Positions 9,627 to 24,000 of a DNA stretch of 24,000 bases are shown piece after piece. Under the pieces are notes generated by a model. The model had not been told where the DNA came from, searched no databases, and saw only the letters and a program-made list of their open reading frames with translations. The stretch is from Pirellulales bacterium (GTDB lineage: Bacteria > Planctomycetota > Planctomycetia > Pirellulales > UBA1268): assembly GCA_041744595.1 (NCBI GenBank), contig JBGTKO010000374.1:10904-34903 (forward strand). The letters run 5' to 3'. The position numbers and the translations under genes are program-made. Position 1 is the stretch's first letter, and every line of letters starts with the position of its first letter.

Positions 9627-10829
9627 TCACCGCGACCGGGAGGCAAGTCTGGCAGCAGCCTTGTAGACAGCCTGCTCCACTTCGCGGGGATCACCGAAAG
9701 CATCGCGGAATTCCTGCAGCCTGGTTTCGGCCGGGTCTTCGGCGAACGGAAGCTTCTGGCCGAGTGATTTCTGATAGGCGATGAAGTCCCGCTTCCGGGT
9801 CTGAAGCAGGTGATGGGTGAGCGCCCAGGCCGCGGCGTAGGCATCGAGCGCCGATGCTGCCTGACGAAAAGGCTCGTCGCCGGCAATGATTGCCTCGATG
9901 ACACCGGGTCGGTAGGTCGAGAGAAAGTGGTCGAGTCGCGAGCGATTGACCGCTCCGATTGCCCGCCAGCCACGGGCGCTCTCGAGGTCGGGAGTTTCGA
10001 AGTAGGTCGCGATACCTTCGCTCACCCACAGGGGCACTGGAGCGAGCCGTCGGTGCATGCCACGGTTGAATGCAAGCTGATGCGTCGCCTCATGGACAAT
10101 CGTGGCAACCATCCCGCTGGCTGCCGGGCTCGCGAGGATGTCGAGGCCAACCTGCCCTGGTCGTCGGCCGCGAGCCGCCGCCACGACGTCGCTGCCGGTG
10201 AGGTCGTAGGTGATGACCCGATTGCTCATCATGTTGTAGTAGCCGACGACCTGATCCGCGGCGGCTCCGAGGTCCGTTGCCGCGTACGCCATGTAGGCCT
10301 GGCGGTCGGCAAAGATGACGACGACGAGGGGTTGCTCGAGGCCGGACATTTCCAGGCCCCCCTTCGACCAGTAGTTGCCAAAGGCATCGTGAAGTCGCTC
10401 GAACAGCGCGGCACACCACTTCGCGTAGTCGCGGGTCGTGTCGAAGCAGATGACATAGTGTTTCGTGCGGAGGAGATCGAATCCCGGGGGCAACGTGGCA
10501 AGGAGCTTTTGGCCCAGTTCGCCGTCCGCTGTGGAAGGTGGTGCCTCGCCCGGGGCCCTTCTGGCCACCGTAGCTGGCTCGAAAAGCTCGTACCTGCCGT
10601 CGTCATGCTCGAGCAGCAGCCCTCCATCGACAGCTTCCACGACGACCCTGCCAGTGACCGATCGCCCATCGGCCGTTTGGATTTCGATGCGGCTGACCGA
10701 TCGAGACGGAGAATCTTCGGTCGAGGCGGGTATCGGGGCGAGCGCCACCGTCACGACGATGAAAGCACAGCCTCGAAGCCGCTGTCGGATTTGCGGTTCG
10801 GAGATGTCACGGGAGCGGACGTGGAGCAT
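9627..10829 (-). CDS. DUF1570-like secreted protein with an HExxH motif (putative metallopeptidase-like)
   Basis: I preferred the in-frame ATG (complement of 10827-10829, MLHVRSRD..., followed by the hydrophobic CAFIVVTVALAPIPA) over the track start at 10937. The sequence contains VATIVHEATHQLAFNRG, which I recall as characteristic of planctomycetal DUF1570 proteins. Confidence 0.6.
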   Translation of the reverse strand: MLHVRSRDISEPQIRQRLRGCAFIVVTVALAPIPASTEDSPSRSVSRIEIQTADGRSVTGRVVVEAVDGGLLLEHDDGRYELFEPATVARRAPGEAPPSTADGELGQKLLATLPPGFDLLRTKHYVICFDTTRDYAKWCAALFERLHDAFGNYWSKGGLEMSGLEQPLVVVIFADRQAYMAYAATDLGAAADQVVGYYNMMSNRVITYDLTGSDVVAAARGRRPGQVGLDILASPAASGMVATIVHEATHQLAFNRGMHRRLAPVPLWVSEGIATYFETPDLESARGWRAIGAVNRSRLDHFLSTYRPGVIEAIIAGDEPFRQAASALDAYAAAWALTHHLLQTRKRDFIAYQKSLGQKLPFAEDPAETRLQEFRDAFGDPREVEQAVYKAAARLASRSR

Positions 10830-10995
10830 GGTGCGAGGCCAGAGGGCTGGGCGAGCGACAGCGACAAACGGGCGCAGGAAGCTTGGGTGGACTGAGGGGC
10901 CGAGGGGGCGTGGCCATCCGATGCACTGGGATCGCATTCCGACCGACAGATCGCTACCGTCGTCGCCCGTTCAGTCGCCCATGTCAGTCGGTTGA

Positions 10996-11788: not shown

Positions 11789-13456
11789 ATGAAGCGCCCC
11801 GTGCTCCCGCCGGGGTTCGCGGGCCCCGCGAGCCGATACCCTCTTTGTCACTACGCGCCTGCCGCTCCCCCCGCTCACTCATCGATGCCATTCTCATTCG
11901 ACCACGCCCTCCGGACTCCGCCGTCGCGCGGGTCATCCTGGCGGTGGCATTTTGTCTGTTTCGCATCTTGTGCGATCGTCTGCGCCGTGCCGATTGCCCT
12001 GGCACACGCGGGGCCGCCAAGCAAGGCTCGCGGAGGATTCGGACGGTTCTTCGAAGGGATGACAAAGCCCCGACCGGAGCCGACCCCCTCATTCATCCCG
12101 GTGCCCACACCGCCTGGCGCCGATGAGGTCGAGCGGCTCGAAAAAATTGCGGCTCGCAACCGACCGCCAGTTCCGCGGCCAGAGCCCGCTCGGCTTCCAT
12201 CATGGGACGAGTCGTCCGACTTTATCGAGGCCGCCAAGACATCAGTTTCCAAAATCCTTGCTGATGCCGCTGCGCGGGATTATCAGCCAGCGCCGAGGCC
12301 ACCTGAAACCGTCACAGTGCCACCGCGACCGGCCGCGGCTGGTCGAACGGTTCCGCTGGTCGTCACACGGTTGGAATCCTCGGGCATGCCGGCCCCTGCC
12401 ACGCAGCGATTCGAGCGGCTGCGGAAATGGATCGGACACACGCTCGTCATGTATCAGCGGCGGCCTCTCAACACGGCCCAGCACACGCCCTGGGAAGTCA
12501 TGCACGGATTTATCGCCTTCGGAATTCCGACCCAGATTCGGGTTGGCGGGCCGGGAGGTGACCTTGCGAGCGCCATCGGCTGGTCGAACTCGGGCGGTGT
12601 CTGCCGTGGACAGGCGATGCTGACCGTGACGGGAGACCGGCTCCACGCCCTCAAGGGCGTCGGCCTCCAGGGGCACTCTGCCCAGTATCTCGCCATTCTG
12701 GCTCAGTGTCGCGTGGCGGCTGGGTCGCCGATCGTCGTCCAGGGCAAACGGTTCACCGTGGCCGATCTCATCGAGGAGGAAAAGCTGTCCTGCAAAGCGG
12801 GCACGGAGCTCACCTTCGCACTCATCGCGCTGGCCCACTACCTGCCGACCGACTCCACCTGGACTGCCCGTGACGGTGAGTCCTGGTCTATTCCGAGGCT
12901 TGTCGAGGAGGAGATCGTGCAGCCGATCCGCGGCGCTGCCTGCGGCGGAACGCACCGGCTATTTGGTCTGTCTTACGGATGCCAGCGAAGACTCAAGGCG
13001 ACCGGGCAGCTCGACGGGGCGTACCTCCGGGCCGACCGCTATGTCCGTGACTTCCAAAACTTCACGCTCACGAAGCTCCAGAACCGTGACGGCTCCTTCA
13101 GCACCGAGTGGTTCAAGTACCCGGCGGACCGTGAGGACGACATCGACCGCAAAATCCAGACGACGGGGCACATCCTCGAGTGGCTCGTGGCCTCTCTCGA
13201 CCAAGAGCGGCTCTACGACCAGCGGATCGTCGCTGCCACCGAGTTCCTTTGTCGGGCCCTCATGCGAGAGCCCTCCCGCGATTGGAAGATCGGTCCTCTC
13301 GGGCACGCCCTCCACGCGCTGAACATGTATCAGGAGCGGGCCTGGGGCGTCGTGCTGCCGGGCGGTATTGCCGCGTTCAATGGGCCGATGAAGGCAGGGC
13401 GGGAGCGGACTGTCACGGCCGAGCAGCCCCGTGCCGGCAACAGGAAGATGCGGTAG
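11789..13456 (+). CDS. Hypothetical exported or membrane protein with a Pro-rich linker and a large C-terminal domain
   Basis: I chose in-frame ATG 11789, preceded by AAGGGAAGG, over the track start at 11651, which overlaps the HEAT gene. It has a hydrophobic segment (WHFVCFASCAIVCAVPIALAHA) and a Pro-rich region. The C-terminal domain carries an LQNRDGSFS motif reminiscent of QxxDG(S/G)(F/W) repeats of alpha/alpha-toroid proteins, which is weak evidence. Confidence 0.55.
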   Translation: MKRPVLPPGFAGPASRYPLCHYAPAAPPAHSSMPFSFDHALRTPPSRGSSWRWHFVCFASCAIVCAVPIALAHAGPPSKARGGFGRFFEGMTKPRPEPTPSFIPVPTPPGADEVERLEKIAARNRPPVPRPEPARLPSWDESSDFIEAAKTSVSKILADAAARDYQPAPRPPETVTVPPRPAAAGRTVPLVVTRLESSGMPAPATQRFERLRKWIGHTLVMYQRRPLNTAQHTPWEVMHGFIAFGIPTQIRVGGPGGDLASAIGWSNSGGVCRGQAMLTVTGDRLHALKGVGLQGHSAQYLAILAQCRVAAGSPIVVQGKRFTVADLIEEEKLSCKAGTELTFALIALAHYLPTDSTWTARDGESWSIPRLVEEEIVQPIRGAACGGTHRLFGLSYGCQRRLKATGQLDGAYLRADRYVRDFQNFTLTKLQNRDGSFSTEWFKYPADREDDIDRKIQTTGHILEWLVASLDQERLYDQRIVAATEFLCRALMREPSRDWKIGPLGHALHALNMYQERAWGVVLPGGIAAFNGPMKAGRERTVTAEQPRAGNRKMR

Positions 13457-13610
13457 GGTTTGCGGGTCGAGCGGGGCGTGCTTGATCCCTCCGCCTAGCC
13501 GTCGTACGCTTCGGGCGCGGGTGTTCCCCGACGGTGTCTCAGGCCCACTCGGCGTCTCTTCCGCGCCCCCCCGGCCGGTGCCGGACGCCCGGCTTGAGTG
13601 GAGTGGATCG

Positions 13611-14540
13611 ATGATGGCAGCGAATGTCACCCCGCAGCTCGAACAGCTTCTCGAGCTGGCAACGCGGCTGTACGAAGCGACGGGCGCCGAGGCGGTCCTC
13701 CTGCTGGTCGACAGGCGGTTGGACTGGGCTCGCGTTCGGCACATTGCAGGGTCCGCGCCTCTCCTCGTTGCCGCCGACGAAAAGGCCGATCTTATCGGAG
13801 CAGAAGAGCATGCCCTCCGGACCGTCGTCCTCGACGTGGTGGGCCTCCCCGTCCATGAGCGGCTTGCCCAGTCGCTGCTCGAATGCGTGGCGGCTGACCT
13901 TCTTGTTCCGGAGGCCCAGGTTGTTGCCGTGTACAGCGGTTTTGAAGCCGACACGATCGACTCGGTGAGCATCCTCAGGCTTTCCGAACACTTGGGCCAG
14001 CTCACGGCCCGTGACCTGCGAAACCTCGAGACGAAAGTGCCGCTCGAGACGCTCAAGGTCGTGGTTGATCTCGCCGTCGAAATCGGCCGCGAGGGCCGCG
14101 AAGGCAAGCCTGTGGGGACGCTCTTTGTTGTCGGTGATACCCGCAAAGTCATGCAGGCAAGCCATTCAGCCGGCTTCGATCCCGTTCGCGGCTATGGGAG
14201 AGTGGAGCGTCGATTGAGCGATCCACGCGTCCGCGAAGGGATCAAGGAGATTGCCCAGCTCGATGGTGCATTTGTGGTCGGCTCCGATGGCACGGTCGAG
14301 GCAGCCGCTCGCTACATCGACGCCTCTGCCGAGAGCGTGTCGGTGGCCAAGGGGCTCGGAGCCCGTCACTGGGCTGCCGCGGCGATCACCCGTCGCACGA
14401 AGAGCGTGGCCGTGGCCGTAAGTGAGACCAGTGGCACGGTGCGAATCTTTCAGGACGGCGAGGTCGTGCTCCGCATCGAGCCCTTCCGCCGCGCGATGAA
14501 GTGGAAGGATTTCGAGTACGAGCCGCGGAGCGGCGACTGA
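13611..14540 (+). CDS. DisA_N/DAC-domain protein (putative diadenylate cyclase, atypical)
   Basis: I chose in-frame ATG 13611 (MMAANVTPQ...). The C-terminal half has the DAC hallmarks in order: GTLFVVGD, LDGAFVV (DGA motif), GLGARHWAAAAIT (RHR position reads RHW), and VAVSETSGTVRIF. The N-terminal roughly 150 aa has no TM helices and no DisA-type HhH. The stop lies 7 nt before polA. Confidence 0.6.
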   Translation: MMAANVTPQLEQLLELATRLYEATGAEAVLLLVDRRLDWARVRHIAGSAPLLVAADEKADLIGAEEHALRTVVLDVVGLPVHERLAQSLLECVAADLLVPEAQVVAVYSGFEADTIDSVSILRLSEHLGQLTARDLRNLETKVPLETLKVVVDLAVEIGREGREGKPVGTLFVVGDTRKVMQASHSAGFDPVRGYGRVERRLSDPRVREGIKEIAQLDGAFVVGSDGTVEAAARYIDASAESVSVAKGLGARHWAAAAITRRTKSVAVAVSETSGTVRIFQDGEVVLRIEPFRRAMKWKDFEYEPRSGD

Positions 14541-14547
14541 CGTTGCC

Positions 14548-17292
14548 TTGGCGGTGTCATCGGAAGCCACGACAAGCGTGCCTGACCTCACAGGCAAGAC
14601 CGTCTTCGCGATCGATCTCTTGTCGCGTGCCTACCAGCTCTTCCATGCGCTCCCGGAGATGACGGCCCCTGACGGCCGGCCGGTGTCGGTCGTCTTCGGA
14701 CTCACCCGCGACCTGCTCGACATCATCGAGAAGCGAAAGCCCGACTATCTCTTTTGCGGCATGGACGCAGCAGGGCCAACGTTTCGCCACGAGCGATTCG
14801 AAGCCTACAAGGCCAACAGGGCCGAAATGCCCGCCGACCTCGTGACGCAAGTTCCGCTGGCCCGGAAGCTGCTCGAGGTCATGGGCATTCCGTGCCTGGA
14901 GCTGCCTGGCTTCGAGGCGGATGACGTGCTGGCGACCCTTGCCACGCGGGTTGCCGCCGCGGGTGGTACCTGCACGATCGCCACGAGCGACAAAGACGCC
15001 CGCCAGTTGCTCAGTGACCGCGTTGAGCTCCTCAACCTCAGAAACAACTCTGCCCTCAGGGCCGCCGAGCTCGAGGCCGAGTGGGGCATCCGGCCCGATC
15101 AGGTCGTCGATTTTTTGGCGCTCGTGGGCGACGCGGTCGATAACGTCCCCGGCGTGCCTGGGATCGGTCCCAAGATTGCGGGAGAGCTCCTTCAAAAGTT
15201 TGACACACTCGACGGCGTGCTCGCCAATATCGACAAGGTGTCAGGGGCCAAGCGCAAGGAGAATCTCACGGCTCACGCGGCAACCGCGAGGGAAGGGCGG
15301 GAGCTCATCCGGCTCGACACAGCCGCGCCGATCGACATTCCGTGGGAGGCAGGGAAGCGACACGAGCCCGACGCCGAGACGCTCGCGGCGCTTCTTCGTG
15401 AATTTGGCTTCCGCAGCCTCTTGGGGCGGGTGCAGGTGAAGGCTGCCGCGCCAGCACCGGCTCGTCGTCGGCAGGCCGCCACGCTTTTTGACATGAGCGA
15501 CGAGCCGGAGTCTGAACCGCAGGCACGAGCCGACATCGTGCTGCCAGCTTCCGCTGCCGAGGAAGACGCGATCGTCGAGAAGCTCAGGTCGCTTCGTGAG
15601 CTTGCCATCTGTGTCTCGCTGCCAAAGGGGGCGACACCGATGACACGGCCGATCGGCATGGCACTCACCGCCGGTGACATGGTCACCTGGTTTTCGGCTG
15701 ATCAACTCGCACGCCATGAACCGCTCCGGTCGCTCTTGGCCGATCCAGCGATCGCCAAACGCGGGCATGATCTCAAGCGACACGATGTCGCCCTCCGCGC
15801 GCTCGGCATCACGCTTCATGGAGCGTCGTTTGACACGCTCCTCGCGGCCTATCTCCTCGAAGCCGGTGAGCGGAACCTCGGGCTCGTTGAAACCTGTCGC
15901 CGCCACGGCCTTGGCCACCTCGTGCCGGATGATCCAGCCGCCGCCGCTGCCATCGAGCATCCGTCCGATCCCGCTGGTGCCGCGGCCCACACGGCCGCTG
16001 TCGCGGCGCTGGGCGAAATTCTTCCGGCGGCGCTCGACAAGGCTGGTCTTTCGTCGCTTTACAACGACCTCGAAATGCCGCTCTCCAGCCTCCTTGCCGA
16101 CATGGAGTGTCGCGGCGTTCAAATCGATACGGCCGTTCTCGCGAGGCTTTCGTCCGACTACGCCACGCGACTCGCGGTCCTCGAGAAGGATATCCACGCG
16201 CTCGCCGGCAAGTCATTTTCAATTGCGTCGCCGATTCAGTTGCGGGAGGTGCTCTTCAAGGATCTCGGCCTCCCGGTGATCAAGAAAACAAAAACGGGCG
16301 CGAGTACCGACGCCGACGTTCTCGAAGAGCTTGCTCCGCAGCATCCGTTGCCCGCGAAGCTGCTCGAGCACCGGCGGTATGCCAAGCTCAAGAGCACATA
16401 TGTCGATGCGCTGCCGTTGCTTGTGGATCCCATGACGCATCGGATTCACACGACGTTCAACCAAACGGTTGCTGCAACGGGCCGGCTTAGCTCGAGCGAC
16501 CCGAACCTCCAGAACATCCCGATTCGCACGGCCGAGGGCCAGCAGATCCGGGCCGCCTTCATCCCAGGCGAACCGGGCTGGCGTTTTGTTGCTGCCGATT
16601 ACTCCCAGATCGAGCTCCGCGTGCTGGCCCATCTCTCGGGTGACACGGCGATGAAAGACGCCTTTGCCTCTGGCGTCGATATCCACATTCGCACCGCAGC
16701 GGCGGTCTACGGCGTCGCCGAAGATGAAGTCGATGGCGCGATGCGTCGCACAGCCAAGGCCGTGAACTTCGGGATTCTCTACGGCCAGAGCGGCTTTGGG
16801 CTCGCCAAGAGCCTTGGCATTCCACAGGCCGATGCGGTGGCATTCATCGCCGCCTACCTCGCGACGTTCGCGGGCGCGGCGGCCTGGATGGACGACATTC
16901 TCGCCCGCTGCCGGCGAGAGGGCCATGTGACCACGATCCTCGGTCGGCGCCGCGGGATCACAGGCGTCCGTGATCGTGAGGGACGGCGTGGCCCCGGCGG
17001 CGTCCCGACCCTCACGCTGCCTGAGCGCACAGCGATCAACACCGTCGTGCAAGGCTCGGCGGCTGACCTCATCAAGCTCGCGATGCTCGCCGTCGATCGC
17101 CGTCTTCGCGACGAGAAGCTCCGAGCCGCCATTGTGCTCCAGATCCACGACGAGCTCATCCTTGAAGCACCGGCCGATGAGGTCGCCGCGGTCGAACGCC
17201 TCGCCACCGAGGAGATGCGTGGTGCGATGCAGCTTGATGTTCCCCTTGAAGTATCCGTCAGTTCCGGCGCCACGTGGGCGGAGTGCGGGTAG
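14548..17292 (+). CDS. polA: DNA polymerase I
   Basis: 914 aa starting at a TTG codon; GTG 14554 is also possible. It has a 5'-nuclease domain (FAIDLLSRAYQLFHAL ... IATSDKDARQL ... GVPGIGPKIA). The polymerase motifs are present: DYSQIELRVLAHLSGD (motif A), RRTAKAVNFGILYGQS (motif B) and QIHDELILEAP (motif C). Confidence 0.95.
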   Translation: MAVSSEATTSVPDLTGKTVFAIDLLSRAYQLFHALPEMTAPDGRPVSVVFGLTRDLLDIIEKRKPDYLFCGMDAAGPTFRHERFEAYKANRAEMPADLVTQVPLARKLLEVMGIPCLELPGFEADDVLATLATRVAAAGGTCTIATSDKDARQLLSDRVELLNLRNNSALRAAELEAEWGIRPDQVVDFLALVGDAVDNVPGVPGIGPKIAGELLQKFDTLDGVLANIDKVSGAKRKENLTAHAATAREGRELIRLDTAAPIDIPWEAGKRHEPDAETLAALLREFGFRSLLGRVQVKAAAPAPARRRQAATLFDMSDEPESEPQARADIVLPASAAEEDAIVEKLRSLRELAICVSLPKGATPMTRPIGMALTAGDMVTWFSADQLARHEPLRSLLADPAIAKRGHDLKRHDVALRALGITLHGASFDTLLAAYLLEAGERNLGLVETCRRHGLGHLVPDDPAAAAAIEHPSDPAGAAAHTAAVAALGEILPAALDKAGLSSLYNDLEMPLSSLLADMECRGVQIDTAVLARLSSDYATRLAVLEKDIHALAGKSFSIASPIQLREVLFKDLGLPVIKKTKTGASTDADVLEELAPQHPLPAKLLEHRRYAKLKSTYVDALPLLVDPMTHRIHTTFNQTVAATGRLSSSDPNLQNIPIRTAEGQQIRAAFIPGEPGWRFVAADYSQIELRVLAHLSGDTAMKDAFASGVDIHIRTAAAVYGVAEDEVDGAMRRTAKAVNFGILYGQSGFGLAKSLGIPQADAVAFIAAYLATFAGAAAWMDDILARCRREGHVTTILGRRRGITGVRDREGRRGPGGVPTLTLPERTAINTVVQGSAADLIKLAMLAVDRRLRDEKLRAAIVLQIHDELILEAPADEVAAVERLATEEMRGAMQLDVPLEVSVSSGATWAECG

Positions 17293-17367
17293 GGTCCGCC
17301 GCCGTGACATGCACGTTGCGTGCGCATTTCGCACAGCTACCTGTTCACCACGCCTTGCCATGCCGTC

Positions 17368-17395
17368 GTGGCGCACGCCTCCAGGCGTGCGAATG
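17368..17395. repeat. Left arm of a perfect 28-bp inverted repeat; the arm is itself a hairpin (CGCACGCC-TCCA-GGCGTGCG)
   Basis: GTGGCGCACGCCTCCAGGCGTGCGAATG is the exact reverse complement of 17531-17558. It lies 76 nt downstream of the polA stop. Confidence 0.85.
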
Positions 17396-17530
17396 GGGTG
17401 TCCATACTCGAAACCCCGGATACCTTCGGGAAAGCGTGACTTCGCGCCACCCCGACGAGCGTTGCAGGATCTTGTCATGGGAAGCGAGCAAAAACTCGAA
17501 GATCCGAGCGACTGTTCCTCAGGCAGCCGG

Positions 17531-17558
17531 CATTCGCACGCCTGGAGGCGTGCGCCAC
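17531..17558. repeat. Right arm of the perfect 28-bp inverted repeat (CATTCGCACGCCTGGAGGCGTGCGCCAC)
   Basis: Exact reverse complement of 17368-17395. The two arms are 135 bp apart. Confidence 0.85.
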
Positions 17559-17671
17559 ATGCGTTGCGGCCGTGAGGCCAACCCCAAGCGGATGCGGTTC
17601 ACGACTCATCCTCAACCAATGGCGAGAAAGGCTCATAGCGCCCGTTTGGTCAAATAAAAGTAAAAGCCCCT

Positions 17672-17746
17672 CTCGAGTTCTTCACATATGTCCTCGGACT
17701 TTCCCATCGCGTCCGCACTGGCGACCTCGAATGTGGTCACTCTTGA
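17672..17746 (+). pseudogene. 3'-terminal remnant (last ~24 codons plus stop) of a paralog of the LuxR/GerE-type HTH gene at 19434-19751
   Basis: It translates to LEFFTYVLGLSHRVRTGDLECGHS*, compared with HEFFTYILGLSHRIRPDEAECSHS* at the end of the intact gene. In the first 14 codons the differences are three synonymous third-position changes plus two V/I swaps. The frame is closed by TAG 17636-17638 and no HTH-coding part lies upstream. Confidence 0.7.
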
Positions 17747-17922
17747 TGACGCAATAATGCGGACCACAAAATGACAGCTTGCAGAAAGTGATGGCACCGA
17801 TACGTTAGCCACACTCACCTGATAGGCGGTGACCGGTGGCCCACACCCTCCAGGACAGATCAAAAAGGGACACACCGGTGTCAAGTAAACGTCGCCTGAT
17901 TCCAAGATTCAGGAGTTGCCCC
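17747..17922 (+). repeat. Copy A of a conserved non-coding leader (paralogous to 19752-19927)
   Basis: My hand alignment shows strong blocks. GGACCACAAAATGACAGCTTG aligns with GGACCCAAAAATGACAGCTTG. TAGGCGGTGACCGGTGGCCCACACCCTCCAGGACA aligns with TAGGCGATGGCCAGTGGCCGACGCCCTCTGGAACA. CGCCT..CAAGA..AGGAG precedes the ATG in both copies. The length from the GA(G/A)TTCTTCAC anchor to the ATG is 248 nt in both copies. Confidence 0.7.
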
Positions 17923-18033
17923 ATGGGCCGCACTTTCGGCGGGCTCATTCACCTAAGTCACGAGCATCGCCAGCCAGCGTGTAACGCCGAGGATGCTATC
18001 TGGAAAGCTTCGATGGCTGGTGATGTCACGTAA
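17923..18033 (+). pseudogene. Probable decayed 5' fragment of a paralog of the heme-oxygenase-like gene at 19928 (36-codon ORF)
   Basis: The ATG sits at the same offset behind the conserved leader, with an AGGAG 7 nt upstream. The 3' part, GAAAGCTTCGATGGCTGGTGATGTCACG, aligns with GAAGCTTTCGCTGGCTGGTGGGATGACA in the intact gene (peptides IWKASMAGDVT vs LLKLSLAGGMT) after a 21-nt indel. It ends at TAA 18031-18033. The first ~60 nt align only weakly. Confidence 0.45.
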
Positions 18034-18076
18034 TTCGTTCGGGATGACTTGCTACCGCAGGGCTTTGCGGCGGATC

Positions 18077-18168
18077 GCATGCGAACGATGGCGCTTGGGA
18101 TCGTGCCACGGCGAGTCGGTTCGGTTACAGAGTTTCTCGCGGGTTTGTGCCGGGCCTACAGTTCACCC
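18077..18168 (+). repeat. Left copy of a ~92-bp inverted repeat bracketing the desaturase gene
   Basis: By my hand alignment it matches the reverse complement of 19168-19259 at 75 of 92 positions. The core CGGTTCGG..ACAGAGTTTCTCGCGGG.TTGTGCC is nearly identical. Weaker similarity with an indel extends outward by about 25 nt. The copy ends 61 nt before the desaturase start. Confidence 0.8.
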
Positions 18169-18229
18169 AACGTGGGTAGTCCCAGGTTGCGGAAGTGTCT
18201 TTGGCGGTTCTATCCTTGAGAGGTGATTT

Positions 18230-19132
18230 GTGAACGGTTGCTCCTCGACACTATCCGTGGCCGCTAAGGCATGCCCTTCGCGACGAACTGAACAGCCGAT
18301 CAACTGGCCCGTGTTGGTCTCGTTCACGCTGATGTATATCGGAGCCGCGCTGGCCCCCTTCCATTTCTCCTGGAGTAGTCTGGGGATAGCGGTGGTCCTC
18401 TACTGTGTAACTGGAATGGCCATCACGCTGGGCTACCACCGTCTTTTGACTCATCGCAGTTTCCAAACCTTTGACTGGCTGCGCAATGTCATCGCCTACT
18501 TCGGATGCATGGCCTTCATTGGCGGGCCCCTGACCTGGGCCGAAATTCATCGGCTTCACCACCAGCACTCTGACGAGGAGGAGTATCCTCATCGTCCGCA
18601 CGACGGGTTCCTTTGGTCGCACGTGCTATACGCCTTCCGCCTCGATCCCGATTCACACAGGGCACTGAACTACGTAAAGGATCTCAGGCTATCGGGAGTT
18701 CTGACTTGGCTGGAAAAGTGGAGCTTTGTCCCTCAGTTATCGAGCTTCGTTGCACTCTACATCCTCGGCGAGCTTGTCTCCCCGGCCCCCTGGGGTTCCG
18801 GGTTGGGGCTCTCGTGGCTGCTGTGGGGTGGATTTGTCCGAACCGTCGTGATGTTAAATGCTGCGGGACTTGTGAACTCCGTGACCCACATCGTTGGGTA
18901 CCGAAATTTTGAGACCAAGGATAACTCACGAAATCTCTGGTGGGTCGCGCTGATCACCTTCGGCGAGGGCTGGCACAACAACCACCATGCGCAACAGCGT
19001 TCTGCCGCTCATGGAATGTTGTGGTGGGAACTCGATCCCACGTTTTGGGCGATCCGCCTTCTGAGTGCGTTCGGTTCGGCCTGGAACATTGTTGAACCGA
19101 TCGTACCGGATCGCCTGCCACGGGTGACATGA
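18230..19132 (+). CDS. Membrane fatty-acid (acyl-CoA/acyl-lipid, Delta9-type) desaturase
   Basis: 300 aa with a GTG start preceded by GAGAGGTGA. The three His boxes are in canonical order: HRLLTH, HRLHHQHSD, HNNHHA. Hydrophobic hairpins flank them. Confidence 0.85.
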   Translation: MNGCSSTLSVAAKACPSRRTEQPINWPVLVSFTLMYIGAALAPFHFSWSSLGIAVVLYCVTGMAITLGYHRLLTHRSFQTFDWLRNVIAYFGCMAFIGGPLTWAEIHRLHHQHSDEEEYPHRPHDGFLWSHVLYAFRLDPDSHRALNYVKDLRLSGVLTWLEKWSFVPQLSSFVALYILGELVSPAPWGSGLGLSWLLWGGFVRTVVMLNAAGLVNSVTHIVGYRNFETKDNSRNLWWVALITFGEGWHNNHHAQQRSAAHGMLWWELDPTFWAIRLLSAFGSAWNIVEPIVPDRLPRVT

Positions 19133-19167
19133 GAGCCAATGATGGCCAGTGCGTGTTGTCAGGGATC

Positions 19168-19259
19168 GGTTCTACGGTGGGCCTGGCACAACCCCGCGAG
19201 AAACTCTGTGGCCGAACCGCCTCGCGGTGGGACGATCCCAAGTGCCGCCCTTCGCATTC
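19168..19259 (-). repeat. Right copy of the ~92-bp inverted repeat bracketing the desaturase gene
   Basis: It is the reverse complement of 18077-18168 at about 80% identity. It starts 35 nt after the desaturase stop and lies about 175 nt upstream of the HTH gene start. Confidence 0.8.
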
Positions 19260-19433
19260 AAACCTCCGCAAGGACGCAGCCCTCCAGGCCGGGGTTCACT
19301 CCCACGACCGGCGCAAAAAAGTTTTCTGGGTTCTGTGCGTTGTCTTGGCATGGCCGTTCAAAGCCGCCCACACGACCGCCGACCCCAAATCCACCCCCGG
19401 CCCACGCCACTCCCCCCGCAGCTGACTGCCGCC

Positions 19434-19751
19434 ATGGCCCGCCCCACAACCAAACCCCACGCAACCCGCAAGGCATCCCTCCCCCCCCTCCCTTTGGACC
19501 GCGGACATTGGCAGGCGATCGTGGCCGCGATCGGTCTTTCGCCGCGGGAAGCGGAAGTGGCCGAGCTCAAGATCCGCGGCGCGCAGCTCAAGGAAATGGC
19601 CGCCCTCCTGGGCATCGCAGTAACCTCGGTGCGGGGCTTCCAGGACCGCATCTGCGCGAAGGCGGGCATCCGCCGTCACGAATTCTTCACGTATATCCTC
19701 GGGCTTTCCCATCGCATCCGCCCGGACGAGGCCGAATGTAGTCACTCATGA
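19434..19751 (+). CDS. Small LuxR/GerE-type helix-turn-helix transcriptional regulator (HTH domain only)
   Basis: I chose in-frame ATG 19434 (105 aa) over the track starts at 19139/19149, which run through the inverted repeat and a Pro-rich low-complexity translation. LSPREAEVAELKIRGAQLKEMAALLGIAVTSVRGFQDRICAKAGI fits the GerE pattern (LxxRExEVxxL...G...KEIAxxLxISxxTVxxHxxxIxxKLG). No receiver or ligand-binding domain is present. No clear Shine-Dalgarno sequence is seen, so the start is uncertain. Confidence 0.7.
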   Translation: MARPTTKPHATRKASLPPLPLDRGHWQAIVAAIGLSPREAEVAELKIRGAQLKEMAALLGIAVTSVRGFQDRICAKAGIRRHEFFTYILGLSHRIRPDEAECSHS

Positions 19752-19927
19752 CGACGCAGTACTGTGGACCCAAAAATGACAGCTTGTGGATTGTAATACC
19801 ATGGTTAACGTAGCGACGACCTCTTGGTAGGCGATGGCCAGTGGCCGACGCCCTCTGGAACAAAACAAGAATAAACAGCCCGTAGTCGATTCTTTGCCGA
19901 CCGCCTACAAGAACGAGGAGGTATCTC
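19752..19927 (+). promoter_or_regulatory. Conserved leader (copy B) between the HTH gene and the heme-oxygenase-like gene; candidate promoter, operator or leader RNA
   Basis: It is conserved in blocks with 17747-17922 (see that feature). It contains the palindrome GGCCAGTGGCC and ends with GAGGAGG 7 nt before ATG 19928. The function is inferred only from this paralog conservation. Confidence 0.35.
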
Positions 19928-20620
19928 ATGGACCAAGTCATTGCCATCGTCGAACAGGCCAAGGAGTATTTCCATGCGGACCTCTTGAAGCTTTCGCTGG
20001 CTGGTGGGATGACAAGGCCGGTCTATGTGAGGTACTTGTCCTTTCAATACCATCTTACAAAGGGCGTGCAGCGACACTTCCTGGCGATCGCTGCTCATCC
20101 CTCACTCTCTGGCAGGCGGCAGTTTCGTAATTTCCTCTATGGCTTCGCCCTTGAAGAGGAACCCCATTTTGACATTGCCCGCCACGACCTGGAAAGCATG
20201 GGAGAAACACCGCTTCCCTGTCCGCTCGATGTCCGGTTGTGGTGGCATTATTTCGATACGGTTGTGGTAACACGGCCATTTGTGCGATTAGGGGCGACGT
20301 GCGTACTCGAGAATCTCGGTGCCGGAGCCGGTCCACTGGGGCATCGGCTGTTGGACGAGGCTCAATTCCTCAATGAACGAAACACACGATTCCTTCAGAT
20401 CCATTTTCACGAGGAACTTCCGCACGGCGACCAGATTCTGGCAGCCCTCAATGCAGCGAATGTGACCGCTCAGGAAGAGACCGACTTGGTGGAAGGAGCC
20501 AGAACAGGAGCGATCATGTACCTCCGGATGGTGCGGTGGGCGCTCGGCTGTGCTGACGTTACGAATGCGTTTTCCATACATACCGAGCCACTACCCCCGA
20601 CGCCGATCCTGTGTCCCTGA
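19928..20620 (+). CDS. Heme-oxygenase-like fold protein (iron-containing redox enzyme / HDO-like, putative diiron oxidase)
   Basis: 230 aa with a strong RBS. The sequence reads as all-helical. It carries carboxylate/His motifs spaced as in the Haem_oxygenas_2/PqqC/CADD-type families: FALEEEPHFDIARHDL, CVLENLGAG, LQIHFHEELPHGD. Confidence 0.55.
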   Translation: MDQVIAIVEQAKEYFHADLLKLSLAGGMTRPVYVRYLSFQYHLTKGVQRHFLAIAAHPSLSGRRQFRNFLYGFALEEEPHFDIARHDLESMGETPLPCPLDVRLWWHYFDTVVVTRPFVRLGATCVLENLGAGAGPLGHRLLDEAQFLNERNTRFLQIHFHEELPHGDQILAALNAANVTAQEETDLVEGARTGAIMYLRMVRWALGCADVTNAFSIHTEPLPPTPILCP

Positions 20621-20720
20621 GTATCGGGGTACACGGAAAAAAAGAGGAGCGGCGTTATCAGCCTGCCCGCCGGTGAGCCCCGACGCAGCAGATGTCGGCA
20701 CTTTTCAGGAGACCGTTCCA

Positions 20721-21488
20721 ATGCAAATCCAGGTGAACGGTGATCATGCCACGACGATCTCTAGCGCTGGCGAAGCAGCAATCGAGCCCTCGGGAAGTGA
20801 TGTCGGTCGGCATACGCTTTCTTTGGGTCCCACTCTCGACCGGATGACAATGAGAGCGCCACCGAGCTACACGGTGGAACAAATCGATCCGCAGTCTCGG
20901 ATGTTCGACCAGGTGCTTGCATTGAGGGGGCTCGCCTACCGCCGTGAGGAGGCCGGCAAGCGAGAAGAGATCGACGACTATTCGATCCATCTCATTGCTC
21001 GGCATGATGACGTCGTGCTGGGGGCCTTGCGGGTAACCTGTTACCAGCATGGGCCGTTCGAGTCACATGACCGCTATCCACGATGGCTGTTGGATGAGTT
21101 TGGCGACCGGATGAGTGCTGCGAGCCGGATGTGTATAAGACCAGAGTTGGCGGGGTGCTCGTCAATTCCACACGATCTGACCGTGCGTGGCTGGTCCACA
21201 GTGTTGCCAATGGGAGTGCGGATAGACGTTTCCAAGGCGAGGCTCAAGGCAATCCCATACTACATGAGAATGGGATACGTGTTCGTCCAGGACTCGATCT
21301 TTCGGTTTCATCACTGGGATGCAATGTGTGGTCTGATTGTCTATCCGGCGAATGCAGCGCATCGTGGCCAGTTTTGGAAGGTGTTTGAGAATATCGACAG
21401 CCCTTGTGACCTGCTGGCGTCAGTCAACGCGAATCGCTTCTCGGCTTCCTACCGTGACGTTCGGAGGGCATCCGAAGCAGCGATCTGA
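20721..21488 (+). CDS. GNAT-superfamily N-acyltransferase of the N-acyl amino acid synthase / OlsB / autoinducer-synthase-like type
   Basis: I chose ATG 20721 (AGGAG 9 nt upstream) over the track start at 20550, which overlaps the previous gene. MFDQVLALRGLAYRREEAG..EIDDYSIHLIARHDDVVLGALRV resembles the (L/F)R..VF..E.g...E.D.yD..a.HL......vG..R(L/V) signature of Acetyltransf_5/NAS-type enzymes. The later segments SRMCIRPE and AIPYYMRMGYVF fit the GNAT core. Confidence 0.55.
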   Translation: MQIQVNGDHATTISSAGEAAIEPSGSDVGRHTLSLGPTLDRMTMRAPPSYTVEQIDPQSRMFDQVLALRGLAYRREEAGKREEIDDYSIHLIARHDDVVLGALRVTCYQHGPFESHDRYPRWLLDEFGDRMSAASRMCIRPELAGCSSIPHDLTVRGWSTVLPMGVRIDVSKARLKAIPYYMRMGYVFVQDSIFRFHHWDAMCGLIVYPANAAHRGQFWKVFENIDSPCDLLASVNANRFSASYRDVRRASEAAI

Positions 21489-21536
21489 CCTCTTCCTCCC
21501 ACAGACGGAGGCGATGGATCAAGGCAAGGACCATAG

Positions 21537-24000
21537 ATGGACATGCAACGAGCGCTTCGGCTGTTGAGAGTGTTCTACCTCGCTCGCGAGGTAGATCGCG
21601 TTGAGGACGAGTGCGTGCGGCAGGGCAGGGCGGCCTTTCATGTCTCCGGCGCGGGGCATGAGAGCCTGGCGGCAGTTGCCGAGGAACTGCTTCCGCAAGA
21701 CTTTCTTCACCTTCATTATCGCGACAAGGCCCTCCTGCTCGGGCGAGGTCTGCCGGTACGGGAGTTCTTTCTGAGCCTTCTGGGTCGCAAGGAATCCCAC
21801 TCCGCCGGACGGCAAATGAGCGCGCATTACTGCTGGAGAAACCTCAATGTGCTCAGCATGGTTGGACCTGTGGGGAACAATGCATTGCAGGCCGTAGGCG
21901 TGGCAGCGGCCGTGAAGGACGACCCGCAGAAGCCAATCGTGTTCTGCACGATTGGCGATGGTACGACGCAGGAGGGCGAGTTTCTGGAGGCCATCACGGA
22001 AGCAGCACGCCATCCGGTGCCCGTGGTCCTTGTCGTCGAGGACAATGGGTGGTCGATTTCAACGGCGACGACCGGGAAGCTGTTTTACAGTTCGCTTGAA
22101 GATGAATCGCGGTTCTGTGGGATCGACTTTCAACGCTTCGACGCTCATGACCCACATATGGTGGCTGATCGATTTGCGGGAGTCATTGGTCGAGTGCGGG
22201 AAACCAGGCTTCCCGCGATTGTGGTTTGCAGATGTGCCCGACTGTGTGACCACACCAATTCCGACGAACAGACGAAATATCGAGACGCGGCCGAGTTGCG
22301 GGCGCTCGCCGATCGGTGTGATCCCGTAAGGGTGTTAGAGGCGTCTCTGGAGAATCGGGGAATCCAATGCCGTGAGCTTGCAAGGTTGAAAGAAGAGTGC
22401 ACGGCTGTCGTGGCCGAGGCGGCCGCCGCGGCGTTCCGCTGTCCGGAGCCGGAGCCCTTTTTTGGTTCAAAGTGTGCCTTACCGCCGACTCGCTTTGGCG
22501 ACGCGGTCACATCCGAGCTCGCGGATGGCCCGCGTCTGACGATGCGGGAGGCCATTAATGAAGTATTACGGTTCCGATTGACGCATGACGACCGGACTGT
22601 GCTGTTAGGGGAGGACATTGAGGATCCGAAAGGAGACGTGTTTGGGGTCACCCGCGGGCTGAGCACCGAATTCCCGGGAAGAGTGTCGAATTCCGCATTG
22701 TCGGAGGCGACAATTCTTGGTGTCAGCATCGGGCGGGCGTTGGCTGGGCAACGGCCTGTGGCTTTCATCCAGTTTGCCGATTTCCTGCCGCTGGCGTTCA
22801 ACCAAATTGCGACCGAGCTTGGGAGCATGTACTGGCGCACATGTGGCGCATGGCAGTGTCCTGTGATTGTCATGATCGCGTGTGGTGGGTATCGTCCTGG
22901 CCTCGGGCCGTTCCACAGCCAGACCCAGGAATCGCTGGGCGTGCATGTGCCAGGGCTCGATGTTGTGATGCCATCGACATCGGCAGACGCGGCAGGCTTG
23001 CTCAATGCGGCACTTGAAAATGGCAGACCAACGCTCTTTTTCTACCCGAAGGCGTTGCTGAATTCTTCGGATCACGCGACCGCATTGAGGCCGCAATCGC
23101 ACTACGTGCCACTCGGGCAAGCCAGTTTCTTGTGCCACGGCGACGAGCTCACACTCGTCAGTTGGGGCGCGGCTCTTCATGAGTGCGAGAAAGCGGTCGA
23201 TGTGTTGACGAAGCATGGGATCAGCGTCGATCTAATTGACTTGCGGTCGCTCTCACCGTGGGACCACGAGTCTGTCTGTGCCTCCGCGGCGCGGACGGGC
23301 CGACTTCTCGTCGTGCATGAGGACAATATCACGTGCGGCTTTGGGGCGGAGGTGGTCGCTACGGTGGGAGAGCTGGTAGATCGGCCCGTAAAAGTGAGTC
23401 GTATTGCCAGAGCGGATACCTACATTCCATTTCATTTTCCCAGTCAGATGGAGATTCTGCCGTCCTGGAAGCGTGTGCTGAACGCGGCTGCTTCGATGCT
23501 CGGATGGGAGTTGACATGGACGATGGGCTCCGAGGCCGATGCCGCTTTCTGCGAGGTTTCCGCTTTGGGATCGGGGCCGGCCGACGATGTGGTGGAGGTG
23601 GTGGCCCTTCGTGTGGGCATCGGCGACGAAGTGGTGGTGGGTCAGTTGCTAGCCGAAGTTGAAGCGGCGAAATCGGTGGTGGAGATTGTCGCTGGCGTTG
23701 CTGGCGTCGTTTCAGACATTGGGGTGCGCGAGGGGGAGCATGTTCGGGTCGGGCAGAGCTTGTTGCGAATACGCCGCTCCGGCAATCTCGCGAGTCAGGC
23801 AGCCCATGATGTCAATAGGAAGGAGCTCACCATTCCGGTTTTGCGACGGAGCCGTCGGGAATTAAGCAGCCGCACCACGACGGCCGAGGCGGGATCACGG
23901 CATCCAGAGCCTATTGTTCTGGCCAGGGAATCGAATGGAGTGAGGAACGGGGAACTGATCTATCTCTCGCGGCCGAGCGTCGTGTTTGGCGGCCGGTTGG
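21537..24000 (+). CDS. Fused 2-oxoacid dehydrogenase E1 alpha + E1 beta + lipoyl/biotinyl-like domain protein, continuing past the window end
   Basis: This ORF is not in the supplied track because it has no stop in the window. I translated it by hand from ATG 21537 (TAG immediately upstream, AAGGA 6 nt before) and found no stop through 24000. The alpha part has HVSGAGHE and the TPP motif GDGTTQEGEFLEAITEAARHPVPVVLVVEDNGWSIS. The beta part has MREAINEVLRFRLTHDDRTVLLGEDIEDPKGDVFGVTRGL...RVSNSALSEATILGVSIGRALAGQRPVAFIQFADF. A lipoyl-like domain follows, with IGDEVVVGQLLAEVEAAKSVVEIVAGVAGVVSDIGVREGEHVRVGQ (Lys codon 23670-23672). After that come a linker and the start of a further domain. The minus-strand ORFs listed in this interval are antisense shadows. 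Confidence 0.85.
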   Translation, partial: MDMQRALRLLRVFYLAREVDRVEDECVRQGRAAFHVSGAGHESLAAVAEELLPQDFLHLHYRDKALLLGRGLPVREFFLSLLGRKESHSAGRQMSAHYCWRNLNVLSMVGPVGNNALQAVGVAAAVKDDPQKPIVFCTIGDGTTQEGEFLEAITEAARHPVPVVLVVEDNGWSISTATTGKLFYSSLEDESRFCGIDFQRFDAHDPHMVADRFAGVIGRVRETRLPAIVVCRCARLCDHTNSDEQTKYRDAAELRALADRCDPVRVLEASLENRGIQCRELARLKEECTAVVAEAAAAAFRCPEPEPFFGSKCALPPTRFGDAVTSELADGPRLTMREAINEVLRFRLTHDDRTVLLGEDIEDPKGDVFGVTRGLSTEFPGRVSNSALSEATILGVSIGRALAGQRPVAFIQFADFLPLAFNQIATELGSMYWRTCGAWQCPVIVMIACGGYRPGLGPFHSQTQESLGVHVPGLDVVMPSTSADAAGLLNAALENGRPTLFFYPKALLNSSDHATALRPQSHYVPLGQASFLCHGDELTLVSWGAALHECEKAVDVLTKHGISVDLIDLRSLSPWDHESVCASAARTGRLLVVHEDNITCGFGAEVVATVGELVDRPVKVSRIARADTYIPFHFPSQMEILPSWKRVLNAAASMLGWELTWTMGSEADAAFCEVSALGSGPADDVVEVVALRVGIGDEVVVGQLLAEVEAAKSVVEIVAGVAGVVSDIGVREGEHVRVGQSLLRIRRSGNLASQAAHDVNRKELTIPVLRRSRRELSSRTTTAEAGSRHPEPIVLARESNGVRNGELIYLSRPSVVFGGRL

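Follow-up and report, generated by a model that had tools for sequence, protein, structure and literature searches.

Directly after the polA gene of a Pirellulales bacterium (Planctomycetota), five genes on the same strand raise the question of whether they encode a single biosynthetic pathway and, if so, which of them belong to it. The genes occupy the final part (17.3–24 kb, the block under study) of a 24,000-nucleotide stretch of DNA (GenBank assembly GCA_041744595.1, contig JBGTKO010000374.1, positions 10,904 to 34,903 of the forward strand), which as a whole we call the window. A preliminary description of this DNA had proposed that a membrane desaturase, a small helix-turn-helix (HTH) protein, a heme-oxygenase-like protein (HDO), an acyltransferase of the GNAT type and a fusion of the E1α and E1β subunits of a 2-oxoacid dehydrogenase with a lipoyl domain jointly build an N-acyl amino acid or a related lipid. 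The five domain assignments hold at the level of fold or superfamily: profile searches gave clear matches for FA_desaturase, E1_dh, Transket_pyr, Transketolase_C and Biotin_lipoyl, matches below the gathering score for GerE (21.3 bits) and Acetyltransf_5 (19.8 bits), and none for Haem_oxygenas_2. The lipid pathway itself stands in part. The block holds an uncharacterised three-gene core, made up of the fusion, GNAT and HDO genes, whose chemistry we infer and whose predicted product class is a lipo-amino acid, while the desaturase and the HTH protein fall outside the conserved system. The three core genes are co-oriented on the plus strand and closely spaced, with 100 nt between the HDO stop codon and the start of the GNAT (as called in protein P0001) and 48 nt between the GNAT stop codon and the start of the fusion.

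The E1–lipoyl–ketosynthase fusion and its neighbourhoods

The last gene of the block had been read as an E1α-E1β-lipoyl fusion of more than 820 amino acids. These modules are indeed present, with E1_dh (1.4e-41), Transket_pyr (2.5e-25) and Transketolase_C (8.9e-29) all far above their gathering scores and Biotin_lipoyl at 8.1e-11 (42 bits), but the protein does not end there. Over 3916 nt a 4.8-kb Logan contig (L001) has the same sequence as the window, and it carries this gene 881 nt further; the full-length protein (P0010, 1127 amino acids) continues into a β-ketoacyl-acyl carrier protein synthase III (KASIII), giving the complete series E1_dh, Transket_pyr, Transketolase_C, Biotin_lipoyl, ACP_syn_III and ACP_syn_III_C (the last two domains were precomputed for P0010 and its listed homologues, the window holding only the first few codons of the KASIII). 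This contig was the only sequence found that reaches past position 24000. Searches with Pfam and NCBIfam found no E2 catalytic core (2-oxoacid_dh acyltransferase) in either the 1127-residue protein or the window.

The residues expected to carry catalysis are well preserved. Across 120 full-length homologues, the GDG...N motif for thiamine pyrophosphate (TPP), the lysine of the lipoyl hairpin (E-x-x-K, VEAAKSV) and the Cys (AAC+G), His and Asn (GNTSS) of the KASIII are each conserved in at least 95% of the sequences. The local motif of the lipoyl domain is E-A-A-K and not the canonical D-K-A, and we favour lipoylation over biotinylation because of the E1 context. Among solved structures, the best E1 relative is the branched-chain 2-oxoacid dehydrogenase of Thermus (1um9; 6e-58 for the B chain and 3e-29 for the A chain), together with human enzymes of the branched-chain 2-oxoacid dehydrogenase (BCKDH) type, and the KASIII part matches FabH structures at 1e-32 to 1e-20, with 2ebd as the best (2e-32). 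Full-length relatives are numerous (45–57% identity, ~1100 amino acids); most of the named ones come from Planctomycetota and a few from cyanobacteria or proteobacteria, and their annotation goes no further than "2-oxoisovalerate dehydrogenase E1" or "thiamine pyrophosphate-dependent enzyme". We found no description of the architecture in the open-access literature. With a KASIII placed after the lipoyl domain, the predicted chemistry therefore shifts from the supply of an acyl-coenzyme A (CoA) starter, as originally proposed, to a CoA-independent hand-off into a condensing enzyme.

The gene neighbourhoods of four relatives are in line with a biosynthetic role. P0010 groups with P0011 and P0012, the fusion proteins of loci L006 and L007 (57% identity, against a median of 48% to other members). 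The first of these loci contains two P450 genes, the fusion, an acyl carrier protein (ACP) and a methyltransferase, and the second a polyketide synthase (PKS; DH-ER-KR), a methyltransferase, the fusion and again an ACP. In a further locus (L037, 385–14395), divergent genes for an extracytoplasmic function (ECF) sigma factor and a WD40 Ser/Thr kinase are followed by a FeeM-like GNAT whose stop codon overlaps the start of the fusion (52% identical), and then by a 468-residue ACP-fusion protein with an unassigned C-terminal domain, a methyltransferase and a MacB/ABC/HlyD exporter. This locus looks like a complete export-coupled lipid cluster and shows, at the level of gene organisation and independently of the window, that a FeeM-type acyltransferase and an E1-lipoyl-KASIII fusion can form one operon-like unit. 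Finally, L038 (1329–12697; also L039) combines the fusion and an ACP with an amino-acid dehydrogenase of the Glu/Leu/Phe/Val type and a FAAL-ACP-KS-AT-DH megasynthase (a PKS). The dehydrogenase fits a sequence leading from an amino acid to a 2-oxoacid and on to the fusion, and the locus suggests amino-acid-derived starter units for a polyketide. The contexts of L037 and L038 support the earlier proposal of an acyl supply from the E1 enzyme to the GNAT, although the KASIII changes the chemistry involved.

The GNAT and the heme-oxygenase-like protein

The HDO matched no Pfam or NCBIfam model, and PF14518 (Haem_oxygenas_2) was not returned even at E ≤ 1; within its family, 8 of 33 members match this model weakly (best 2.5e-4). 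An AF2 model (pLDDT 91.4, pTM 0.86) is all-helical with ten helices, and Foldseek relates it to 3dde (function unknown; E 1.3e-5, TM 0.73), to CADD (8va9, TM 0.73–0.78, and 1rcw) and, further, to TenA homologues, UndA (6p5q and 4wx0) and AetD. A profile of the family found nothing significant among PDB sequences. Close inspection of 33 family sequences reveals that E77xxH80, E128, H159, H161, E162 and H166 are invariant, and invariant Tyr and Arg residues are also present. The number and spacing of these His and Glu residues appear compatible with a dimetal ligand set, and one pair of histidines lies seven residues apart, as do H194 and H201 of UndA. The ligand-bearing segment 161–170 is modelled with lower confidence, compatible with the mobile core helix known in the heme-oxygenase-like dimetal superfamily. 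As judged from the model, the protein is likely a heme-oxygenase-like dimetal enzyme with the fold of CADD and UndA, to which any chemistry is assigned by prediction. The family is sizeable, with 528 homologues detected, those listed being 54–79% identical.

Similarly, the GNAT reaches only 19.8 bits with Acetyltransf_5 (PF13444; cut-off 22.4) and matches neither FeeM (PF21926) nor any NCBIfam model. Its relatives are more telling: seven of the nine closest homologues match FeeM (best 7.7e-8) and seven match PF13444, and more distant GNATs that partner an HDO match FeeM at 25–38 bits. The subfamily is small (9 word-based matches; 224 representative clusters in 1.84 billion proteins). In the AF2 model, residues 50–255 adopt the GNAT fold with pLDDT mostly above 90, and because the first 43 residues are predicted to be disordered the true start may lie near 20844. 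Foldseek returned 460 PDB matches at E ≤ 1e-3, of which the top 50 are all GNAT-type acyltransferases; the CoA-dependent N-acyl homoserine lactone (AHL) synthases BjaI, RpaI and MesI are among the matches, with TM-scores of ~0.45–0.5, while no Autoind_synth match was obtained in Pfam at E ≤ 0.1. On the strength of its sequence family, the GNAT may be of the long-chain N-acyl amino acid synthase (NAS) type and would catalyse an acyl-ACP-dependent N-acylation.

Do these two genes occur together elsewhere? An iterative profile search over 23 GTDB genome loci carrying the HDO, plus metagenome loci, found a homologous GNAT directly beside the HDO in at least 14 of the 23 (L008, L009, L011, L015, L017–L023, L025, L026 and L028), and also in six metagenome loci (L002–L004 and L032–L034). 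The two genes share a strand, the stop codon of one often overlapping the start codon of the next, and usually follow the order GNAT then HDO. The hosts of the HDO loci are Planctomycetota, Verrucomicrobiota, Cyanobacteria (Fischerella, Phormidium, Egbenema and Chamaesiphon), a metagenome-assembled genome (MAG) of the Hydrogenedentales and one of the Pseudobdellovibrionaceae. Across these phyla the HDO stays 50–79% identical, while its partner GNATs drift below 25%. Gene neighbourhood is thus conserved for the pair and not for the five genes as a unit; no counterpart of the desaturase or of the HTH protein turned up in the related loci compared.

In 9 of 10 loci the GC content of the pair is below that of its flanks, by up to 16 points, and the same holds in the window; this lower GC suggests, as far as composition can indicate, a horizontally mobile module. 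On a JGI contig (L002, 11690–19775) the pair adjoins a Phage_capsid_4 gene, two ParB-N6/N4 methyltransferases and a DUF5131 gene, phage-like neighbours that are consistent with mobility. In L005 (7133–11265) a DDE transposase lies directly upstream of a partial Ser/Thr kinase open reading frame (ORF), which precedes a homologue of the GNAT; the kinase domain is N-terminally incomplete and the 180-residue ORF after the GNAT is not recognisably an HDO, so that this locus may be a decaying copy of the module.

The pair also keeps regulatory company. In about 11 loci from three phyla its neighbours include an ECF sigma factor and a Ser/Thr kinase (a raw count, with no background rate), and some of the GNATs, from cyanobacteria and a verrucomicrobium, carry a C-terminal cyclic-nucleotide (cNMP)-binding domain (L015, 11506–13242; L018, 2492–3637; L021, 8496–9638). 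In the Pseudobdellovibrionaceae MAG (L027, 3–2891), a large GAF protein with a weak N-terminal FeeM-like match is encoded just upstream of the HDO; a further region of this GNAT-GAF protein looks cyclase-like by eye, Pfam showing only the GAF and the weak FeeM matches. These links to kinases, sigma factors and cNMP-binding domains suggest a regulated lipid signal. Accessory genes comprise a SnoaL-like protein and a membrane methyltransferase of the PEMT/ICMT type in L032 and a SAM methyltransferase in L011. Directly 3' of the HDO, four loci carry a family of 256 amino acids (F8) with no Pfam match, three of them in verrucomicrobial MAGs and the fourth (L016) in a record labelled Enterobacteriaceae. 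The F8 proteins have a D-E..H-L...LG.IR motif in common with the GNATs, and a comparison by hhalign gave a probability of only 14% that they are cryptic GNATs, which is suggestive at most.

Composition, repeats and probable local additions

Consistent with an accessory origin, the base composition changes where the block begins. In 1-kb windows, GC content is 0.60–0.66 across 1–17.5 kb and 0.567–0.609 across 17.5–24 kb, dropping from ~0.64 to 0.56–0.60 directly after the polA stop codon (confirmed at position 17292; the translation, read directly, contains the Pol A motifs RRTAKAVNFGILYG and QIHDELILE). Twelve long upstream ORFs, picked by length as the reference, have a GC content of 0.60–0.655 and a pooled third-position GC (GC3) of 0.72, against 0.571 for the desaturase, 0.557 for the HDO, 0.564 for the GNAT and 0.598 for the fusion, with a pooled GC3 of 0.66. 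The HTH gene, at 0.654, is host-like and the exception within the block. The shift reported in the preliminary description is therefore borne out by both the windows and the individual genes, and the block is distinct in composition from the rest of the window. The accompanying claim that TTA, ATA and AGA codons are absent upstream is exact for TTA (0 of 5294 codons upstream, 8 of 1715 downstream) and slightly too strong for ATA and AGA, which do occur there at lower frequency; pooled, the three codons rise from 23 of 5294 to 23 of 1715, a three-fold enrichment (Fisher p = 2e-4), and the fusion gene alone contains 5 TTA and 6 AGA codons. Upstream of the block lies ordinary chromosome: the first 17 kb encode UbiA and two xylose-isomerase-like TIM barrels, and polA is preceded by the gene for a diadenylate cyclase of the DacZ type. 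A DUF1570 protein is also encoded there, and as this domain is typical of planctomycetes it supports the assignment of the host. Neither a tRNA, a possible marker of an integration site, nor an integrase was found in the window. The block is probably an accessory segment that was horizontally acquired and later rearranged.

Table 1. Positions of genes, protein domains and repeat elements. Coordinates are those of the window unless another locus is named.
Feature	Position	Strand	Remarks
DUF1570 protein	9627-10937	-	
DacZ-type diadenylate cyclase	13431-14540	+	DacZ_P sensor and DAC domain; directly upstream of polA
Non-coding stretch after polA stop	17293-18229		937 nt; GC 0.578; holds repeat elements
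Two palindromic hairpin units, copies inverted	17368-17395 and 17531-17558		CGCACGCC-TSSA-GGCGTGCG; 76 nt past polA stop
AT-rich run	17651-17666	+	CAAATAAAAGTAAAAG; exactly at 5' breakpoint of the duplicated segment starting at 17668
Decayed direct copy of 19673-19871	17668-17866	+	74% over 199 nt
Left arm of 98-nt inverted repeat	18065-18162		83% complementary to right arm; the arms bracket the desaturase gene
SCD1/Delta9-type membrane acyl-CoA fatty-acid desaturase	18230-19132	+	300 aa; Pfam FA_desaturase 3.4e-19, 70 bits
Right arm of 98-nt inverted repeat	19174-19271		Non-coding
LuxR/GerE-type HTH-only protein	19434-19751	+	105 aa; GerE 21.3 bits, E 2e-4; gathering score 23.5
Heme-oxygenase-like protein (HDO)	19928-20620	+	GAGGAGG 7 nt before ATG; fold-based assignment
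FeeM/Acetyltransf_5-like GNAT acyltransferase	20721-21488	+	255 aa as called in P0001
E1α-E1β-lipoyl-KASIII fusion	21537 to beyond 24000	+	First 821 codons of 1127 aa
Fusion, E1α	~21546-22460		Residues 4-308
Fusion, E1β	~22537-23501		Residues 334-655
Fusion, lipoyl domain	~23596-23771		Residues 687-745; followed by linker of ~70 residues
Fusion, KASIII	from ~23980		Residues ~825-1121; runs ~920 nt past the window
F8 gene	L011 10730-11500		
F8 gene	L013 10742-11521		
F8 gene	L014 7639-8409		
F8 gene	L016 4201-4983		

The dense repeats noted earlier in the block were recovered by self-BLAST of the whole window, which gave four significant repeat pairs, three of them inside 17.3–19.9 kb (Table 1). 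The sole significant pair outside the block is a 30-nt direct repeat (4558–4587/4629–4658; 97% identical, starts 71 nt apart). Closest to polA, the two hairpin units are perfect inverted copies of each other over 28 nt, with 135 nt between them (2 matches, with 0.01 expected by chance); they may represent a REP-like element or a (bidirectional) terminator region of polA. The AT-rich run singled out in the preliminary description was confirmed. The decayed copy that begins beside it derives from the 3' end of the HTH gene and carries the last 23 codons and stop of that gene (EFFTYVLGLSHRVRTGDLECGHS*), as well as the leader that precedes the HDO. As for the 98-nt inverted repeat, the right arm is taken to be non-coding, since a stop interrupts the equivalent frame of the other copy. 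An Rfam scan of 17–24 kb at E ≤ 1 gave no match, this repeat included; an arm together with its flank folds no better than shuffled sequences (z = -0.66), and scans for promoters and terminators gave background levels only. The duplicated segment and the bracketing inverted repeats led us to read the block as assembled in steps, and one plausible order is that an HTH-HDO-GNAT-fusion unit came to lie beside polA first and that the desaturase cassette was inserted later.

The desaturase is a standard SCD1/DesC-type acyl-CoA enzyme, with Delta9 regiospecificity assigned by similarity: its His boxes (HRLLTH, HRLHH and HNNHH) align with the HRLxxH, HRxHH and HNxHH boxes of human and mouse SCD1 (4zyo and 4ymk), which match it with E ~1e-24. 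In the HTH protein, LSPREAEVAELKIRGAQLKEMAALLGIAVTSV fits the LuxR/FixJ HTH pattern by eye, and no receiver, sensor or ligand-binding domain accompanies it. A remnant of ECF sigma region 4 was considered and rejected, as the protein has no Sigma70_r4 match and no similarity to the ECF genes of the related loci. Both genes look like local additions that stand outside the conserved system. In this organism the desaturase may modify the acyl chain and the HTH protein may regulate expression, roles to which conservation lends no support.

A predicted pathway, competing explanations and known systems

How might the three core genes work together? With moderate confidence, we propose that the fusion, the GNAT and the HDO make a tailored N-acyl amine or N-acyl amino acid. 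The E1α and E1β domains, most similar to the branched-chain type, would decarboxylate a 2-oxoacid with TPP and reductively acylate the lipoyl domain of the same chain. From this swinging arm the acyl group would move straight onto the catalytic Cys of the KASIII; as the fusion has no E2 core, an acyl-CoA intermediate is presumably bypassed. The KASIII would then condense the acyl group with malonyl-ACP to a β-ketoacyl-ACP, a CoA-independent route from a 2-oxoacid. By analogy with L006, L007, L037 and L038, a dedicated ACP gene should follow shortly after the end of the window. The FeeM-like GNAT would take the acyl chain from the ACP, perhaps once it has been elongated, and attach it to an amine or amino acid. 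The HDO would act with O2 on the amino-acid substrate or on the N-acyl product, tailoring it by desaturation, oxidative decarboxylation, hydroxylation or N-oxygenation. The domain architecture, the conservation of catalytic residues, the folds, the adjacency in other genomes and the composition were established directly, whereas the chemical steps, the substrates, the order of GNAT and HDO and the downstream ACP are predictions. We are most confident about architecture, namely the fusion of four domains, the conservation of the GNAT-HDO pair and the mosaic nature of the low-GC block, and least confident about the chemistry (substrate, sequence of steps and kind of product).

Several observations weigh against this pathway. 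No locus besides the window joins all three genes, the other GNAT-HDO pairs having no fusion, and the window reverses the usual gene order by placing the HDO before the GNAT. The GNAT of L037, which provides the clearest parallel, belongs to a different FeeM subfamily and is found without an HDO. The ACP downstream of the fusion is an expectation about a position beyond the sequence covered. Neither the HDO nor the GNAT of the window reaches a curated Pfam or NCBIfam threshold, profile searches of PDB sequences with the two gave no solved homologue, and the solved FeeM structure is missing from the top 50 Foldseek matches of the GNAT. The desaturase fits the pathway poorly, since enzymes of the SCD type act on acyl-CoA or lipid-bound chains and not on acyl-ACP. 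Lastly, in L035 the fusion stands alone in a housekeeping-looking context of unrelated genes, and the copy in the window could therefore be the normal fatty-acid primer enzyme of the organism.

This last point leads to the main rival of the three-gene pathway, which we consider unlikely: chance juxtaposition, in which a mobile GNAT-HDO pair, a desaturase cassette and an HTH gene landed beside an ordinary fatty-acid primer fusion, the pair drawing its acyl chains from the general pool and the fusion serving membrane lipid synthesis only. The fusion family is large and includes the solitary member of L035, neither a fusion nor a desaturase lies near the pair in any of roughly 20 GNAT-HDO loci, and the rearrangement scars at 17.3–19.9 kb show piecemeal assembly. 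On the other hand, the fusion gene partakes of the low GC (0.598) and of the TTA and AGA usage of the block, its closest relatives sit in biosynthetic loci with an ACP next to them, a FeeM-type GNAT is translationally coupled to such a fusion in L037, and in the window only 48 nt separate the GNAT from the fusion.

Alternatively, the pair could be a signal synthase that makes a diffusible lipid signal by a LuxI-like logic, with the fusion customising the chain and the GerE-type HTH protein providing the transcriptional output, a scheme that we regard as rather doubtful. The sigma factors and kinases in about 11 loci from three phyla, the fusions of the GNAT to cNMP-binding domains (L015, L018 and L021) and to a GAF protein (L027), the CoA-dependent AHL synthases among its structural matches and the LuxR-type HTH gene directly upstream in the window all speak for it. 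Against it, the phyla concerned are very rich in ECF sigma factors and Ser/Thr kinases and the 11 loci are a raw count, the HTH protein lacks a ligand-binding domain and does not accompany the pair in the related loci compared, and neither an Autoind_synth match nor a receptor candidate was found. It is very improbable that the HDO is instead a CADD-like self-sacrificing or cofactor-forming enzyme or a TenA-like salvage hydrolase, with the GNAT modifying its small-molecule product and no fatty N-acyl amino acid being made: CADD (8va9 and 1rcw) and TenA homologues do rank at the top alongside UndA, the HDO is far better conserved across phyla than the GNAT, and the invariant Tyr and Arg are present, but the partner GNATs belong to the long-chain FeeM/Acetyltransf_5 families, other loci carry lipid-type accessory genes (the PEMT/ICMT methyltransferase and the SnoaL-like protein), and the abundance of invariant His and Glu agrees better with a dimetal site than with the Cys/Glu hydrolase site of TenA.

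Returning to the three-gene pathway, a more ambitious version of it would make the locus new twice over, with CoA-independent priming by the fusion and synthesis of an oxidised lipo-amino-acid signal by the GNAT-HDO pair; that both hold together seems to us improbable. For the fusion, this would mean that planctomycetes and some other bacteria could use lipoyl-to-ketosynthase delivery to start lipids and polyketides, and, if confirmed, the route would be a new way of priming fatty acids and polyketides and would offer pathway engineers a compact part. For the pair, the signals could be common to Planctomycetota, Verrucomicrobiota and Cyanobacteria and be controlled by ECF sigma factors, Ser/Thr kinases and cyclic nucleotides; if true, this would be a quorum-sensing-like system in phyla where none is established, and the pair would extend heme-oxygenase-like oxidase chemistry to lipidated amino acids. 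Little is known of signalling and natural-product chemistry in Planctomycetota and Verrucomicrobiota, whose biosynthetic genes standard tools recognise only with difficulty. Both systems are directly testable by the expression of two to four genes.

Compared with known systems, parts of the locus are recognisable, and neither the GNAT-HDO pair nor the fusion appears to have been characterised. The pair recalls the FeeM-type NAS clusters (the environmental-DNA fee cluster, the NasY loci for stieleriacines, thalassotalic acids and kyonggic acids, and tyzACB of Mycobacterium tuberculosis), in which a FeeM/Acetyltransf_5 GNAT also lies beside oxidative tailoring genes; the expected products are likewise N-acyl amino acids and a planctomycete host is plausible. 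It differs from them in that the partner of the GNAT is a heme-oxygenase-like dimetal protein and that the GNAT itself belongs to a small subfamily and scores below the Pfam threshold. The parallel drawn earlier with the N-acyl dehydrotyrosines of Stieleria is generic only, since the known loci for stieleriacine, thalassotalic acid, kyonggic acid and tyrazolone pair the NAS with ThiF-like and nitroreductase-family proteins (PMC12479983). A scan of the five genes and of other ORFs of the window showed neither a ThiF-like adenylyltransferase nor a nitroreductase-family desaturase, and a stieleriacine-type cluster, with the architecture given in that work, was rejected for this reason. In the open-access literature we found no description of a NAS-HDO pair, and a search aimed at this combination returned no paper in which "N-acyl amino acid" occurs together with heme-oxygenase-like or diiron terms.

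The HDO has the helical fold and the small biosynthetic locus of the enzymes UndA, BesC, SznF, CADD, AetD, FlcD and RohS, and its invariant His and Glu residues in ExxH-like motifs appear compatible with theirs; it is unlike them in showing no significant sequence similarity to any solved member; we know of no characterised HDO that is paired with a NAS. With the LuxI/LuxR systems of BjaI, RpaI and MesI the locus has in common a GNAT-like acyltransferase fold, an adjacent LuxR-type HTH gene and a predicted supply of branched chains that recalls isovaleryl-homoserine lactone, whereas the Autoind_synth match and the autoinducer-binding domain are missing and the TM-scores are low.

For the fusion, the paradigm is the BCKDH complex (E1/E2/E3) that primes FabH in Bacillus and Staphylococcus. 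Both have TPP-dependent E1α and E1β subunits, a lipoyl carrier and a KASIII with a Cys-His-Asn triad; in the paradigm an acyl-CoA intermediate links the two systems, while in the window the modules are joined in one 1127-residue chain with no E2 core, and close relatives have an ACP of their own after them, within PKS-like or lipid biosynthetic loci. Closer in concept are QncN/QncL and NapB/NapD, in which an E1-like transketolase and a lipoyl-bearing E2-like protein load a glycolyl unit onto an ACP in the biosynthesis of quinocarcin and naphthyridinomycin. These systems keep an E2-type transferase, consist of separate proteins, have no fused condensing enzyme and take their unit from a ketose donor and not from a 2-oxoacid. 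Like the fusion as we read it, they have recruited a TPP/lipoyl system that delivers the acyl group to a carrier protein instead of CoA, and the E1/lipoyl loading of quinocarcin is, to our knowledge, the nearest conceptual precedent for it.

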